DNA of 62,094 nt, the filler included. It is 10 parts of 10 records of this genome, joined end to end, with 100 filler letters (N's around TTAATTAATTAA, not from the genome) between each part and the next. Parts side by side here need not be neighbours in the genome. Positions count along the whole stretch, not along the records: positions 25,618 to 37,906 come from SRR7504441_4948; 9 more parts are not named here. One strand, 5' to 3'. The notes under the pieces are model-generated. The model was not told the DNA's origin and searched no databases. It saw only the letters and a program-made list of their open reading frames with translations. Positions 6,346 to 56,167 of this stretch are shown here, piece by piece (position 1 is the stretch's first letter; each line of letters begins with the position of its first letter). The position numbers and the translations under genes were made by a program.

Positions 6346-6445
6346 NNNNNNNNNNNNNNNNNNNNNNNNNNNNNNNNNNNNNNNNNNNNTTAATTAATTA
6401 ANNNNNNNNNNNNNNNNNNNNNNNNNNNNNNNNNNNNNNNNNNNN
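6346..6445. other. Artificial contig linker (N44-TTAATTAATTAA-N44); also at 13169-13268, 17722-17821, 21367-21466, 25518-25617, 37907-38006, 43575-43674, 49804-49903, 56068-56167
   Basis: Identical 100-nt spacer with stops in all six frames; several genes are truncated at these points. Confidence 0.99.
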
Positions 6446-12983: not shown

Positions 12984-13442
12984 TTCCTACGGTTCATTTT
13001 TCCACTACTGCTCGCTCGTAAGGTTAGCTTTAATAACAGAAATAAACTAATCAGTGACACGTGTATATGCAAGATATGGTACGTACTTGCGTCGACGCTT
13101 GTTTGCTTCATTCTAGCTTCATTCAGCAACCAAGCACGTTCTTCGCCCCTGCCGGCGGGGCCCTGGCANNNNNNNNNNNNNNNNNNNNNNNNNNNNNNNN
13201 NNNNNNNNNNNNTTAATTAATTAANNNNNNNNNNNNNNNNNNNNNNNNNNNNNNNNNNNNNNNNNNNNTTAAATCGATCCCTGAATCTCTTGTTTTAATT
13301 AAAAACGCGTGGATCTACGTAGTCTACTGTACTTTAGTACAGGTACGGCTGTACATGCCGTAAGTTTTACAGAGCTCAGGCAATTTTAAACCCCGGCGCC
13401 ATCCCGGGACGAGAGCACCGCGGGTCGCGGTAGCAGCAAGCG

Positions 13443-16400
13443 ATGGGGGCGCGGATCCAGCAGCTGGAGGTGAATAACTTCAAGTCGTATCACGGCGAGA
13501 ACGTGATCGGGCCCTTCTCGGACTTCACTGCCATCATCGGCCCGAACGGGGCCGGCAAGTCAAACTGTATGGACGCTATCTCGTTCGTGCTGGGGGTGAG
13601 CTCGGCCAAGTTGCGCGGATCTCGGATCACCGACCTGATCTACAGGCCCGAGGGTGAAGAGCCGGAGGATCAGACCCGCAAGGCGGCGGTCACACTGGTG
13701 CTGGTGGAGGAGAGCGGCGCCGAGGTGCGGATGGGGCGTACCGTGGCGCCGAATGGGAATTGCGACTACCGGCTGAACAACAAAGTGGTGACCCATGAGG
13801 CGTTCGACGCTCAGCTCAAAAGCTACGGCATCCTGGTCAAGGCCCGCAATTTTTTGGTCTTCCAGGGCGACGTGGAGGCTGTGGCGCAGAAAAAGCCCAA
13901 AGAGCTGACGGGCCTGCTGGAGATCATCTCCGGGTCGGGCGAGCTGAAGGACGACTACGATAGGTTGAAGCAGGAGAAACTGGAGGCGGACGAGGCGCTG
14001 ATACTGGCCAGCGGCAAGACTAAGAACATCAGGGCTGAGCGGAAGGTGGCCAAGGAGCAGAAGAAGGAGATGGAGAGGTTCAACGAGATCCTGGAGCAGG
14101 AGGCTGAGCTCAAGAGCAATCATATGCTCTGGAAAATGTTCCACGTCGAGACTGAGATCGCCGAGGTGGTCGAGGAGATTGATTCGATGCGCGAGTCTGT
14201 CGAGGATGCCAAGGCGGAAGTGGAGGCCGCGGAGGGCGAGGTGCAGGGCAAGATTCAGGAACGGGCGGCGTTCCAGCGGGAGGAGAAGCAGCAGCAGAAG
14301 AAGATCGAGGAGAAGCGGAAAGCGATTGAGACTCTGGCACCAAAGCGGATCGAGCTCGAGGAGAAGATGGCGCACACGGAGAAGAGGAAGAAGTCAGCTG
14401 AGTCCAACCTCAAGACGCTTCGCAAGAGCGCGGATAAGCAGGGCAAGGTGGCCCAGAAGATTGCGGCCGATCTGGGTCAGCTCAAGCAAGCGTTTGACGA
14501 GTTTGAGGAGCAAGCTGCGGTCGAGCAGGGCAGCAAGGGGCTCAAGCTGGGCGCCAACCAGCAGGCCGAGTACAATAAGCTTAAGGAGCGGGCAGGGCTG
14601 GAGGCGCACGAGCTCAAGGCGGACCTTAAGAAGCAGACCCAGCTGCGTGATCGGCTGCAGAAGGACTTTGACAGTAGGTCGACAGGGATCAAGCAGCTAC
14701 TCAACCAGAAGCAGCAGCTGCAGGAGAAGGTCGTGGCCCTGAACGACAAGCAGCAGGCCAACGCGCAGGAGACGGCCGACTGTAAGGATGAGTTGACCAG
14801 CGTGACCAAGGAGCTCAAGGCGATCAGCTCCGACGACGGGGCCGCGCGTGAGCGTGAAGCCAAACTCGAGGAGCGTCTGGGCAAAGTAGACCAGGTACTA
14901 CAGAACGCTAGAGCCGACCGGCACGAGAGCCGAAAAGAGGCTCAGCAGCGCGAGGCGCTTGAGACGCTGAAGCGGCTTTACCCTGGAGTGCATGGCCGGC
15001 TGTTTGATCTATGCTCGATCGTGGACCGCAAGTACAACGTGTCTGTGACGATTGCACTTGGAAAGAACATGGACGCCGTGGTGGTGGATGACGATAAAAC
15101 AGCGATTGATTGCATCGACTACCTCAAGGCCCAGCGGCTTGGCCGGATGACATTCATCCCGCTGGACATCCGAGCCAAGCCTGTGAACGAGCAGCTGAGG
15201 GCCGACTGCGCCAACAACAACAACAGGAACCTTGTGCTCGATGTCATCACCTACAACAAGAAGTTTGAGAATGTGCTCTGCTTCGCCTGTGGGGACACAG
15301 TTGTTTGCCCCGATCTGAAGGATGGTCGGAGCTTCTGCTTCGGCAGCTCGACGAGGTACAGAGCTGTCACACTTGATGGTATGATGATCTCAAAGAACGG
15401 CAACATGGCCGGGGGCAACAGCAGTGAGACCATGCGCTCGAACCGGTGAGCTGAGCGGCCGGCGCAGTATGTGACTGCTGGTTTGGCAGGTGGGAGGAGA
15501 AGGAGATGACGGAACTTAAGCAGAAGCGCGACAAGTGGAGGAATGAACTGAATGAGATTCGACACTCAACCGCCTCAATTGAAAAGCAGACCGAGCTGCG
15601 CGGGCAGATGGGCTCGCTCGAAAACAAGGTGCAGATGCTCCAGCATGCTCAGAAGCAGGACGCAGCCAAGCTCAAGGCACATGAGGAGAATATTAAGTCT
15701 TACAATAAGCAGATCAAGAAGCTCAGCCCGGACCTGGATCAGACAGGCGAGCAGCTCAAGCAGCAGGAGGACAAAGTGGAAGAGCTCGAAACCCAGATTG
15801 GTGCCATTGAGGAGCGTGTCTTCCGCAAGTTCTCTGACAAGGTCGGGGTGCGGAATATCCGAGAGTACGAGGAGAACACGCTGGTGCAGCAGCAGCAGCA
15901 TAGCGAGAAGAAGCTGACCTTTCAGAAGAACATTCGCCGGCTAGAGGCGGCAATGAAGCTGGAGCAGACCCGTGACAAGAGCGCCGAGCTTGGCAAGATT
16001 GAGAAGCAGGTTGACGGGTACGCCGACACGCTTCAGGAGCTCAAGCAGAAGCACGAGCAGTACTGTGAGCAGACTGCCACGCTCGAAAGCGAGCTAGAGG
16101 AGCAGCAGTCAGCTACAGAGAGCAAGAGCGCTGATGTGAAGCGGTTCGACAGTGAGGTCAAGGAGCTGCGTAAGGCGCTTGATTCTCAACGGAGTGCTAT
16201 GGCAGGGCAACAGAAAAAGGTGGACAGCAAGGAGACGCTGGCGGAGCAGCTGCGTTCCAAGCGCCACTCCTTGTTCCAGCAGACACGACTAGAAGAAATT
16301 CTGCTGCCGCTGGCAGAAGGAAAGGGGGAAGCCGCTAAGGAGGCGGCGCAGTCACGACGAGGTGGTGCCCGTGATGGCCCTGCAAAGCGGCGTCGGACGA

Positions 16401-17275
16401 GTGATGGGCACCACAAAACTGGCTTGCGTCGTGACCTGGACCAGACGGAGCAGTTCCTGGAGCTGGACGGCTCAGTGGACGTGTCCAAGGCAACCAAAGA
16501 CAATGGCTGCGTGAGTGTGGCCCTGAGCTCAGTGCCTGATGATAAGAGGAGACCTGTCACCCAGCAGGATATTGAGCGCGAAGCTGACAAATACCGAGAG
16601 CAACGCAAAGCGCTCATCATGGAAATGGAGAAGATATCCCCCAACACCCGGGCGCTAGATAAGTTTAACGAGGCTGAGGGTCGGCTTAAGACCATGGTGG
16701 ACGAGTTTGAGACAGCCAGAGACAAGTCCAAGGAAGCGATGCAGGCATTCGACACTGTAAAGGCCAAGCGACATGAACTGTTTGTTGCTGCATTCAAGCA
16801 TGTGGCTGGTTGCATCGACGATGTGTACAAAGAGCTGACGTCGTCAGCCAAATGCCCGGCTGGCGGGACTGCTGTCGTCACATTAGAGAACGAGGATGAG
16901 CCCTACTTGCATGGAATTCGATACTATCCTCAGCCGCCCTTCAAGGGCTTTAGGGATATCGACCAGCTCTCGGGTGGAGAAAAGTCGATATCGGCACTGG
17001 CCTTGCTGTTTGCGATCCACAGTTTCAAGCCAGCGCCTTTCTTTGTTTTGGATGAGGTTGACGCGGCTCTAGATACTGCCAACGTCTCGCAAGTTGCCCA
17101 CTTCATCAAGTCGAAGAAAAACGAAACACAGTTTGTAGTGATTTCTCTCAAGGATCACTTCTACGAGAATGCTGATGGACTGGTTGGCGTTTGCAAAAAC
17201 CGTCCAACCCAGAGCTCTGCCATCTTCACGATGGATCTTGCCCCCTACCAGGAAGCAGTCATTCCGAATGCATGA
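13443..17275 (+). CDS. SMC1: Cohesin subunit SMC1; intron 15446-15489
   Basis: Walker A GPNGAGKSN, ARNFLVFQGDVE, hinge region, LSGGEK signature, PAPFFVLDEVDAALD. A 44-nt GT-AG intron joins the two ORFs (NR|WEEKEM). Confidence 0.97.
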
Positions 17276-17821
17276 GCAGCCTGTGTTAGTCACCTACGAT
17301 AACTACTACGTTCAAAAATTTCATGTTTTGCTTACTGCACTACAACCATTTCCGGAACACAGATTGCCCGTTTACTACTTTGCTATGCCCAGGCGCGCTG
17401 CAATATTTGGATTTGTAAAGCCCGTATGAAGTCTGCTCCATGTTCTCTATGCTCGGCAATCGAGCCAGGCGCAGGACAACAGTTGAGTCGTTGGGCTGGC
17501 AAGCGTCCAGCTACTACCGTTAGACCATAAGATTGAGGCAGCTCCATTGAGTGTCGTACGTGTACCACTCTTCATGCGCTCTTACGGTGCAATCGCCTTA
17601 GAATTACTCAATAGTCCTCATGTCTAACATCAATACTTATTATACATGTGCCATAGGATAAAACAGTTTTCATAATTAGAAATATCTCGCAGATTTTAAT
17701 GTTTTTCAAACAAATCGTGCGNNNNNNNNNNNNNNNNNNNNNNNNNNNNNNNNNNNNNNNNNNNNTTAATTAATTAANNNNNNNNNNNNNNNNNNNNNNN
17801 NNNNNNNNNNNNNNNNNNNNN

Positions 17822-20835: not shown

Positions 20836-21466
20836 GCGGTCTACTACCTCGAGAATACCAGTCTCGATCGAGCGCCGGTTCTATCACGTGCATAGTCAAC
20901 GCATAGTTGGACGTATTAACTAGGATTGGTCACACCCACGTAATTACGAGTACGTACTCGTATTGTACCATGCAAACGTGATCGTGAGTACGAGTACGTA
21001 TCAATCAATCAATCGATCAATCGTGAGTATTTAATCATGATCATGCGTAGTAATAACCAGCCAACAGCCTAAGCTCCGGTAGGACTGAGCTAGTAAAGTG
21101 CGTCGGTAGAAGGGTTTGCAAGATGATACTTTTAGTTTGATTGCAATCTTACATGCATAATATGTACGTATACATGCATAATGTTATGTCGTATCATAGT
21201 CGTATCACAAGGCTCCGGAGATCTGCTTAGCCTGATACACAGAACGTGAACGTGGCCGGCGTCTGTGCTCTCGCCTCTTTGCTAACTCATCCATCTAGGC
21301 AACTGGCATCAGGCCTTGGCCCTTCCGATCCGATGACGGTGTCTCCTCGGTCGGTGCAGCCGGTGTNNNNNNNNNNNNNNNNNNNNNNNNNNNNNNNNNN
21401 NNNNNNNNNNTTAATTAATTAANNNNNNNNNNNNNNNNNNNNNNNNNNNNNNNNNNNNNNNNNNNN

Positions 21467-25517: not shown

Positions 25518-25806
25518 NNNNNNNNNNNNNNNNNNNNNNNNNNNNNNNNNNNNNNNNNNNNTTAATTAATTAANNNNNNNNNNNNNNNNNNNNNNNNNNN
25601 NNNNNNNNNNNNNNNNNCCTATTAATAAACTCGATTCAGCCCGATACAATGCGGTGCGGCGGCTGCTAGCCTAGCACCTCTGCTGGCGCTGTTGGAAGCC
25701 CTTGCTTCCTCGTGTTGCGCCCCCGCGTCCCTTCTGATCATGCTGTTTTTGCTGATTTTTTTCTGGCGGCGGCCGTTACTTCGCAGCGGGTACACCAGCA
25801 CTCGCG

Positions 25807-36292: not shown

Positions 36293-36530
36293 TCAGTGCG
36301 GTGAGTGCATTAGATCAAGGACATCGGGCGTGGGATGACTCCGCTCGATGACCGCCATGTAGAGATATTGTAACAGGATTGCTGTCATTGAATTTTGCTC
36401 CAATCTCATAGAAAAAATAACACAGCTACGTCTAAAGGAGTCAGGAGCTTGCTTACACAACGAACGAACGGACCAATAAGCTCTCTAAACGTCTAGGGAA
36501 TCTTTCCAGCATAGCCGGCATCCTCCAAAA

Positions 36531-37906
36531 TCAATCAGCCAGGTTCCCAAGCAGGAGGCTCGCATCGTTCTGGCTCGGCGTCAGCCCAAAGGACAGCTGC
36601 CTATCCGAGCCCTTTTTGCCGTCTTTCGAGGCCCGGCTACGCTTGGGTTGGGCCGGCCTGAGAATCGCCGTCAGCACGCGCGCCAGCCGGCCGGGGCACC
36701 TGTATTCCTCTGGCCTAACGAACATGGTGCCATAGAATTCGAGCTGATACGCCACGCCTTCCACTTGCACCTGGCCACTGCTCGGCCAGAGATCGAACAC
36801 CGGCCGACCTGATACTTCTTCTCCGTCTTGCCCAGGACAAACGCCGTGCGGCCCTCGTACTTGCCTCGCGTTAGCTTGACCGTCTGGCCAATCCAGTCGT
36901 CCTGCCGCTATCCGTCACAGGCCCAGCTGTGCCCCGCCCGCACCCCGCCAGAGGTGTTGTTGCCAGTCCTCGACCCCTTGCTGCCCGCCTGCGACTTCTT
37001 CTCTTTGTGCGGCCTCTTGGCCTTGCCGCCTGGATCCTGCTTATTATAGAAGCGCGCGCAGGACCACCTTCACTGCTTCTTTTCCTCTTGTCCCCAGCAG
37101 CCGGTGGCTGCTCCTCCGGCTCCGGTTGCTTCTCCTGGGGAAGCTGCTGGTTGCTACTCGACGCGCCAAAGTCCACTCCGAGCAAGTCTGCGCGCGGCCT
37201 GTCAGCCGCCGGCCATGTCAGCCGGCTAAGGACCGGCTATATTGAAGTCTACAGAGTTGAGCAGAGAGTCGGCCCTGATCAGGTCGGTGCTGTTGGTCTT
37301 GCCGCCCAGCTGCTCCTTGGACACCGATCGAGTCAGCCGTGTGTCCGACCCTGCCCGTCCGTCAGCCTCGGGCGGCGCCACCTCTCGGTGCTAAATCGGG
37401 CGCCGGGCAGCGGAGGGGGCGGGGGGCGGCCCGGAGGGGGTGCGGGTTCGGGCGCCGCAGGTCGATCAGATCAACACACTGCTGGTGCTGCGCCATTGGG
37501 CCGCGCCCGGGGCTCGGGCAGCGGTGAGGGTTGCGACCTGAGGCCTCCTTCTCTTTGCCCTTCTCTTTGACCTTGTCCGAGACAAGCGTGTGCAGGCACT
37601 CCTTGGACTTGCTGCGGGTGAGCGGCTCCTCGGCCATCCGGCCCAGCAGTTCCTTGGAGTCGCTACGCATCAGCAGTGTGTTGATCTGATCGACTGAGGG
37701 CGCCCGTACCTCCTGCTGGGCCGCCCCGCTGAAGAAGCCGCCCTTGCCGCCCTTGGGGGTTTCGAGCTCGTCGGGTCCCCAGAGCCCGGTGAGCTGCTTG
37801 GCGAACGTCCCGAAGGACAGCTCCCGCTTGAGGTTCAGGTCCACCATCCTGACAGCCTGCCCGAACCTGCGCGCCGGCGCCTGGTGCAACGAGTTGTGAT
37901 CAACTT
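36531..37906 (-). CDS. Hypothetical protein with RSxSKE repeats and a KOW-like domain, multi-intron, 5' truncated
   Basis: Repeats MRSDSKE, LTRSKSKE and LTRSVSKE; KOW-like WIGQTVKLTRGKYEGRTAFVLG; includes the 187-nt intron 37351-37537. One junction near 37040-37070 could not be phased with canonical sites. Confidence 0.6.
37445..37710. repeat. Exon-intron inverted repeat: arms 37445-37488 (intron) and 37667-37710 (exon), 24-bp perfect core
   Basis: 37461-37484 GTCGATCAGATCAACACACTGCTG is the exact reverse complement of 37671-37694. Pairing extends through 37445-37456/37699-37710 (11/12) and 37486-37488/37667-37669. Confidence 0.95.
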
Positions 37907-38006
37907 NNNNNNNNNNNNNNNNNNNNNNNNNNNNNNNNNNNNNNNNNNNNTTAATTAATTAANNNNNNNNNNNNNNNNNNNNNNNNNNNNNNNNNNNNNN
38001 NNNNNN

Positions 38007-38526
38007 CTTCCAGGTCCAGCTCCAGCAGCGTGGTATTCACTCGCAGCATCGCCGCTAGTGCCGCCGCTCCCTCGTCAGCGATGCTGTTGCCCCGCAGATC
38101 CAGAACCGCCAGGCTGCTGTTCGTCAGCAGAGCCTCCGCTATCATGCGCGCCCCCTCGACCCCGATGCCGTTGTCTGGCAGCGTGAGCACCTTCAAGCTC
38201 GTATTCGACTTCAGCATCTTTGCCAGCGCCGTCGCGCCAACATCGCCGATCCGGGCTATACCAAACAGTCTGCCCAGGTGTAGCTCCTGCAGGCTCGAGC
38301 TGTGCTCAACCGCCTCCGCCAGCGCTGTTGCCCCGAGGTCGCCGATCTGGTTACCAAACAGATTGAGCTTGAGCAGGCCGGAAGCGGACCGCACACCCTG
38401 CGCGAGCGCCACCGCACCGCTGTCACCCAGAGGGACCGCGTTATTGCGGCCAGCTTGGTCGCATTCCAAGTTCAGCTCCGACACTTCAGCTCCGATGCTT
38501 CCCAGCTTGGTCGAGTCCCACTTCAT
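38007..38526 (-). CDS. RI-like leucine-rich repeat protein (NLRC3-type repeats), truncated
   Basis: Repeats LNLFGNQIGDLGATALA and LDLRGNSIADEGAAALA. Confidence 0.85.
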
Positions 38527-38621
38527 CCTGCCGAGCTCGCCCGCGGGACACCTAACCTATCGGCCGCCACTGCCAGATCCAGGCCGTGCCAACCGTTCTG
38601 TTGAGCAACGGAACTGTCTCG

Positions 38622-43574: not shown

Positions 43575-43739
43575 NNNNNNNNNNNNNNNNNNNNNNNNNN
43601 NNNNNNNNNNNNNNNNNNTTAATTAATTAANNNNNNNNNNNNNNNNNNNNNNNNNNNNNNNNNNNNNNNNNNNNACCACAATTAATTTTAATGTACATAC
43701 TTTTCGCATAAAGGGCTTCGCCTAGCTCTTACCTAGCTC

Positions 43740-49803: not shown

Positions 49804-49903
49804 NNNNNNNNNNNNNNNNNNNNNNNNNNNNNNNNNNNNNNNNNNNNTTAATTAATTAANNNNNNNNNNNNNNNNNNNNNNNNNNNNNNNNNNNNNNNNN
49901 NNN

Positions 49904-55828: not shown

Positions 55829-56167
55829 TCAGCCGGAGCTGACTGATCAGCCGGAGTGGTGCGTTCCCTAAGAACCCCCTCCAGCACCCACTGTATGTAC
55901 CACTGTAATAAACCTGATGAGATCTATCTATGATTTTACTAAACGAATGAGCGTGAGTAACTAATTAATTTAATCAATTAACGACCGAAGAAGCTTCTCA
56001 TCTTATCTACGAGCCTGTCACTCCTCTCCACGCTCGCCTGCGAGGCCGCAATCTGCCCGCGCCGTCANNNNNNNNNNNNNNNNNNNNNNNNNNNNNNNNN
56101 NNNNNNNNNNNTTAATTAATTAANNNNNNNNNNNNNNNNNNNNNNNNNNNNNNNNNNNNNNNNNNNN

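Follow-up and report, generated by a model that had tools for sequence, protein, structure and literature searches.

The window, by which we mean the whole stretch of DNA analysed (62,094 bases), consists of ten contigs, with the same 100-nt linker (N44-TTAATTAATTAA-N44; Table 1) between each and the next, so that genes on the two sides of a linker may lie far apart in the genome. The contig at 25618-37906 carries a gene for a KOW-motif protein whose first intron contains an antisense copy of part of the preceding exon; the exon-intron duplex that the two copies can form sits about 200 nt from the right end of this contig. An LRR reading frame (38007-38556, Pfam LRR_6) lies beyond the linker on another contig and is no part of the KOW-motif gene. 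Elsewhere in the window, two adjoining long open reading frames on the plus strand (13434-15449 and 15455-17275) correspond to the N-terminal and hinge part and to the C-terminal part of one SMC protein, with a single stop between them, probably at a tiny intron.

The sequencing runs that match the stretch are all seawater or marine metagenomes or metatranscriptomes, the share of sampled words being at most 0.20 in each. Among 5.8 billion proteins, the best match to a 473-aa carboxypeptidase encoded in the window is just 58% identical, and an entry from Phaeocystis antarctica shows 50% identity over 51% of the query. Telonema subtile contributes an entry to the homologues of the KOW-motif gene, and comparison of the SMC reading frame with a protein atlas was uninformative for taxonomy. 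Given protists as the named relatives, marine runs and a distant best match, we take the source to be an uncultured marine protist.

The KOW-motif gene starts with the ATG at 37847, its product beginning MVDLNLKRE, and ends at 36531. Along its length the 307-aa model protein aligns with nine homologues (P0002-P0010) at 53-57% identity; these are about 300 aa long and share the same starting Met (MVDLNLKRE), from which we conclude that the gene starts at ATG 37847 and is complete on its contig. The KOW motif is placed in the C-terminal part of the protein through homologue P0002, which reaches 22.5 bits in Pfam against a cut-off of 22.3; the Pfam scan itself was run on the homologues, P0007 gave no match, and the KOW region of the window protein aligns closely with that of P0002. 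Together, P0001-P0010 make up a small family of proteins of about 300 aa with a KOW motif, an invariant MVDLxLxRE start and two LTRSxSKE motifs, found only in marine metatranscriptomes and in EukProt transcriptomes (one being that of Telonema subtile) and with no Pfam match other than KOW. Three sequences of the P0004 cluster that come from longer contigs of 1347-1487 nt (P0145, P0146 and P0150) depart from the family directly after KKYQV, at the place of the window's fifth intron (36808-36771), a pattern compatible with intron retention in a relative at a position that is conserved; the same three are continuous through the place of the 187-nt intron described below. In contigs of public runs, here numbered X1, X2, X3 and X5, two short pieces of the gene (36736-36771 and 37543-37575) are matched at about 89-91% by X2 record 3 and X5 record 9, with unlike sequence on both sides. 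These probably come from members of the gene family in other organisms that the samples contain.

Table 1. Coordinates, in the window, of the KOW-motif gene, its introns, the elements of the exon-intron duplex and the artificial linkers.
Feature	Position	Strand	Remarks
Coding region, 307-aa KOW-motif protein	36531-37847	-	7 exons, 6 GT-AG introns; model by coordinates and homologue alignment
Exon arm	37667-37727	-	codes GAAQQEVRAPSVDQINTLLM; in exon context in RNA contigs of X1, X2, X3
Cryptic donor-like GAG/GTACGG	37704-37712	-	from sequence; within exon arm, phase 0
Core, exon side	37671-37694	-	pairs with 37461-37484, probability 1.0
A of Met codon ATG	37670	-	opposite C37485, unpaired in fold
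Intron 1	37351-37537	-	187 nt, GT..AG, 76% G+C, phase 1 after codon 104
Intron arm, antisense copy of exon arm	37423-37488	-	in intron context in X5 contigs, 0 differences
Intronic C opposite A37670	37485	-	seen in X5 record 8
GGCTGAC, branch-site-like motif	37361-37367	-	from sequence
Introns 2-6	37233-37188, 37067-37030, 36943-36902, 36808-36771, 36699-36658	-	gene model
Artificial linker N44-TTAATTAATTAA-N44	37907-38006	.	separates two contigs
Other linkers	6346-6445, 13169-13268, 17722-17821, 21367-21466, 25518-25617, 43575-43674, 49804-49903, 56068-56167		

A first-pass annotation had singled out intron 1 as oversized, 187 nt against about 40 nt elsewhere, and had described it as a GT...GGCTGAC intron whose removal restores the frame. 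Both statements hold. The other five introns of the gene measure 46, 38, 42, 38 and 42 nt, which leaves intron 1 as an outlier of 4-5 times the length of its neighbours. An RNA contig, X2 record 5, joins 37349 to 37537 with 187 nt skipped and 0 mismatches; exon 1 contributes 197 nt to it and exon 2 contributes 24, the shorter side being below the 31-letter bridging rule. Removal of the intron restores both frame and homology (...EASG/SDTRLTRSVSKE), including the second conserved RLTRSxSKE motif. Since the joint falls at the predicted GT..AG and both the frame and this second motif are restored, we count the intron as real: 37537-37351 is a true spliceosomal GT-AG intron. RNA contigs join across three of the six introns, namely a 42-nt one (X1), 37067-37030 (38 nt, X2) and intron 1 (X2), and the few RNA contigs compared contain neither intron retention nor an alternative splice form.

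The frame open from exon 1 continues into intron 1, where it is ended by the TGA at 37364-37362 inside GGCTGAC; an open reading frame at 37362-37958 is listed over exon 1 and intron 1. Retention of the intron would yield a 161-aa product (37362-37847, minus strand) that lacks the nuclear-type basic stretch and the KOW domain. A further suggestion of the earlier annotation concerned a cryptic donor, GAG/GTACGG, covered by the duplex. The motif is present at 37712-37704, and splicing from it to the real acceptor would shift the frame; its use was seen in none of the three RNA contigs (X1, X2 and X3), all of which run through it unspliced.

A repeat search and a scan of the window bear out the antisense exon copy. 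The arms at 37445-37488 and 37667-37710 are 44 nt long, 86% complementary and 178 nt apart, and they share a perfect core of 24 nt (37461-37484 with 37671-37694); across all 62,094 bases scanned, no other inverted repeat within 1 kb has a perfect core of at least 16 nt. In a gapped alignment the inverted homology runs over 61 nt of exon (37727-37667) against 66 nt of intron (37423-37488). The intron arm is an inverted copy of codons 41-60 and lies 50 nt into intron 1. Short direct repeats also occur in this intron, at 37387-37419 and at 37439-37457 and 37508-37530 (two families, 78-79% alike), and one of them partially repeats the GGCGCCCGA end of the intron arm.

Folding of the pre-mRNA brings the two arms together. 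The region has a minimum free energy (MFE) of -213.4 kcal/mol against a shuffle mean of -180 (z = -5.54, with 0 of 100 shuffles as good), the duplex is part of the MFE fold, and when a longer stretch (37847-37300) is folded, exon and intron bases pair with probabilities of about 1.0. Opposite the intronic C, the Met-codon A stays unpaired, just as the annotation had it; 24 perfect pairs adjoin it on the 5' side, while in the 3' direction three pairs (37669-37667) lead to the 178-nt loop. This loop, closed by the helix, contains the 5' splice site, and the cryptic donor is within the helix. With a G at 37670 the perfect helix would grow to 28 bp, and the MFE drops from -281.2 to -287.9 kcal/mol. 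No Rfam family was found on 36400-37906 at E up to 1.

The inverted repeat is not an artefact of assembly or amplification. A fold-back was ruled out, the arms being imperfect, 178 nt apart and each present in its own context in contigs of other public runs. Two X5 contigs of 151 nt each (37303-37453 and 37459-37609) carry the intron arm and run into exon 2 and exon 1, respectively, with no difference from the window; X5 may be the source sample of the window, and its support for the intron arm is therefore not certainly independent. The first-pass annotation was right about the structure of the locus: the intron is oversized yet spliced, part of it is complementary to the exon, and an A.C mismatch falls on a Met codon.

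The same annotation proposed that this A might be recoded from ATG to GTG. Over the 1465 bases of contigs that match the gene at 99% identity or more (1163 of RNA from X1, X2 and X3 and 302 from X5, the kind of which was guessed as DNA), the sole difference is T>C on the plus strand, or A>G in the mRNA, at 37670. Two matches with loose ends on both sides were dropped from this total: X2 record 3 (36 nt, 4 differences) and X5 record 9 (33 nt, 3 differences). The contig cover leaves out 37165-37266 and 36808-36909, and the presumed DNA cover, which comprises 37303-37609, leaves out 37610-37906 with position 37670. The G, which changes residue 60 from Met to Val (ATG to GTG), occurs in one of the three RNA contigs that cover the site: X1 record 2 (37575-37818, 244 nt, depth 3.4), in which the site is 96 nt from the contig end. 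The other two, the spliced X2 record 5 and X3 record 6, read the genomic base. X1 record 2 was also considered as a chimera of the two arms and rejected as such, for it follows the exon rather than the intron arm both in the 3' flank and at the 4-nt loop 25-28 nt upstream, an argument that leans on our assumption that the contigs of these runs were built from 31-letter words.

How much weight can be given to this one base depends on its setting. A difference in a single contig of depth below 5 may be an error, and in metagenomes and metatranscriptomes, which sample mixed communities and here come from different studies (three runs of three studies for X1, X2 and X3), differences between strains or alleles look like editing. 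By our own arithmetic, a change unrelated to the duplex would hit this site in this direction with a chance of about 1 in 1000 (3/1163 RNA bases, 1/3 changes); for a polymorphism exactly at 37670, given the mismatch, our own estimate is about 1-3%. Editing and strain polymorphism look alike in these contigs, and the difference may be either. For the proposed recoding, the expected G is seen in one of three RNA contigs, and it may equally reflect a strain allele.

Homologues give some perspective on residue 60. The column varies between M, H, L, Q and E, with Met in the closest homologues (P0001-P0004) and in 14/14 covering members of the P0004 cluster, so that G is not evidently the older state. 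Transcripts of relatives show no M/V dimorphism (Met in 14/14 of the P0004 cluster, His in 4/4 of the P0006 cluster), which says nothing about a lineage-specific site. A search of the protein collection found no same-species fragments with M or V at residue 60.

Taking these observations together, we see about an even chance that the locus is the relic of an inverted duplication, the mismatch being a polymorphic site in the DNA. The exon sequence would have been copied by local inverted duplication or by templated (snap-back) repair insertion, an event that created or lengthened intron 1, and the copied segment would have been tolerated because it is spliced out. Templated repair insertions can give rise to introns, and one of these two events is the simplest origin of the intron arm. 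In unspliced RNA the two copies would, as judged from folding, pair over about 52 base pairs and leave A37670 opposite C37485; splicing would then remove the intron arm and give a mature mRNA free of the duplex. The A/G difference would be a DNA polymorphism between strains at the very position whose substitution made the mismatch, and nothing would change at the RNA level.

An origin by duplication is suggested by a genuine repeat, without equal in the window, that loses its match towards the ends through mismatches and indels in the manner of a duplicated segment, and by contigs of other runs that show each arm in its proper surroundings. At the two boundaries of intron 1 a short string recurs in similar form outside the splice consensus, which is weak evidence. 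In a blastn search of intron 1 against the 62-kb window only the intron itself and the exon arm were found, with no second copy, and no terminal inverted repeats were seen in the intron; being single-copy as far as 62 kb can tell, it is unlike a multi-copy introner. Searches for genomic relatives gave none: neither the exon-1 protein in metagenome_contigs nor the 28-nt arm pattern or the family alignment in genome_contigs found one, and the five loci recovered with the family alignment (L001-L005) are all spliced transcripts of 1.1-1.2 kb.

That the G is a polymorphism is argued for by the genomic A in the spliced X2 record 5 and in two of three RNA contigs overall, by runs from mixed communities of different studies in which alleles mimic editing, and by the conservative nature of a Met to Val exchange in a column that varies among homologues. 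Furthermore, mismatches of a duplicated repeat mark mutated sites, which would make a polymorphism likelier than average at 37670, and both the G neighbour on the 5' side and the mere three pairs between the site and the loop point to a polymorphism rather than to editing. Against it speaks that the lone difference hits a site named beforehand in the direction named beforehand, and that the species is otherwise invariant among four runs of four studies, which would make an allele at this place a coincidence. The Met of the closest homologues is a further point on this side. Nor was a DNA read with G seen, the presumed DNA cover from X5 stopping at 37609.

The next reading takes the intron arm for an editing complementary sequence (ECS), so that a deaminase would convert A37670 to inosine before splicing. 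We think this unlikely, though well within consideration, and hold it equally doubtful that part of the mRNA encodes Val rather than Met at residue 60. The architecture resembles that of animal editing sites in which an exon pairs with the downstream intron, with a 24-bp core and the A opposite a C, and a target A opposite C is favourable for editing by ADARs. The predicted change is the sole difference, it is seen in RNA, and one contig in three is what partial or condition-dependent editing would give; Met in the closest homologues makes A plausibly the genomic state, and the G extends the perfect helix and lowers the MFE. Yet the difference comes from one contig of a depth at which differences may be errors, and the other adenosines of the core are unchanged in X1 record 2. 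Editing by ADARs is inefficient close to the 3' end of a helix, and a site 3 bp from that end is a poor context for the known enzymes. The same is true of its 5' neighbour, G37671, which departs from the ADAR preference for U or A at this position; according to PMC9989829, a 5' G is disfavoured by ADARs in all animals examined.

The prior for a dsRNA-directed deaminase in this organism is also low. Proteins with an ADAR-like deaminase domain are reported from 24 protist species, which speaks for a possible enzyme, but they lack a dsRNA-binding domain (PMC11946409). No A-to-I editing of mRNA turned up in four unicellular animal relatives (PMC9989829), and the literature we found does not report ECS-type editing outside animals. 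Relatives' transcripts, with their uniform Met or His, likewise offer no sign of a second state. As a whole, the editing interpretation of the first-pass annotation is partly supported, by a striking though single, low-depth and unmatched RNA observation.

Less probable again, in our judgement, is a duplex kept by selection for its effect on splicing, in which the helix would shape recognition or timing of the 5' splice site or mask the cryptic donor at 37709, and the G would be a compensatory change in DNA. The position of the 5' splice site in the helix-closed loop and of GAG/GTACGG inside the helix would suit such a role, as would a core that is perfect over 24 bp between decayed flanks, and the G variant restores a pair. 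The frame is also open into the intron, and retention would lead to a 161-aa product that lacks the KOW domain, in a genome otherwise set for introns of about 40 nt. However, alternative or retained forms are absent from the few contigs compared, the sequences searched hold no comparative evidence of conservation, and a perfect run of 24 nt may also point to a young or imprecisely copied duplication.

It is very unlikely that the G arose by error, whether in reverse transcription, PCR, sequencing or assembly, and that the repeat is a neutral relic: the depth of X1 record 2, below 5, would allow it, but the error would need to strike one named base in 1163 with the named change, in a contig that is not a chimera of the two arms. 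Least credible of all is a hairpin serving as small-RNA precursor and Dicer substrate, since the near-perfect stem of 24-28 bp stands beside a 178-nt loop, one arm is a coding exon of a conserved protein and no Rfam match was obtained.

If the difference is a DNA allele, as in the duplication reading that we prefer, the locus would provide a clean example of an intron that, among 40-nt introns, owes its existence or its extra length to an inverted copy of the gene's own exon, with a polymorphism on the mismatch of a long pre-mRNA helix. Introns borne by transposons are described in many protists (PMC9860276). Intron 1 is like introners and templated repair insertions in being an outlier in length with sequence copied from nearby DNA, and it differs from introners in that no second copy in 62 kb and no terminal inverted repeats accompany it and in that the copy comes from the gene's own exon.

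Among known editing systems, the closest parallel is offered by the Q/R and R/G sites of GluA2 (GRIA2), where a target in an exon likewise pairs with a stretch of the downstream intron, lies opposite a C and is changed before splicing with recoding as the result. Here, in contrast, the organism is a protist, the 5' neighbour is a G, 3 bp separate the site from the end of the helix and editing is only putative. In fungi, stage-specific A-to-I editing of mRNA is carried out by relatives of tRNA deaminases at sites in hairpin loops preceded by U, and is not known to use exon-intron duplexes. This resembles our case as recoding of nuclear mRNA outside animals, whereas the A considered here forms a 1x1 mismatch within a long helix and follows a G, unlike the fungal type of site. 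Editing sites formed by exon and intron pairing are linked with splicing (PMC1920255).

Outside animals, the only candidate class of enzyme would be that of the ADAR-like deaminases of Symbiodinium, paradinids and other protists (PMC11946409, PMC5357065); those of paradinids are proposed to act in mitochondria, and none is known to be tied to a duplex-guided nuclear site. The view taken in PMC9989829 is that the duplex-guided A-to-I recoding of nuclear mRNAs was invented by animals. It is improbable, on present evidence, that a non-animal marine protist directs recoding of Met60 to Val by an intronic editing complementary sequence. If it did, recoding of the animal type would either predate animals or have arisen independently, presumably with an ADAR-like deaminase that follows different neighbour rules; the view of an animal invention would be overturned, and the orphan ADAR-like proteins of protists would gain a substrate.
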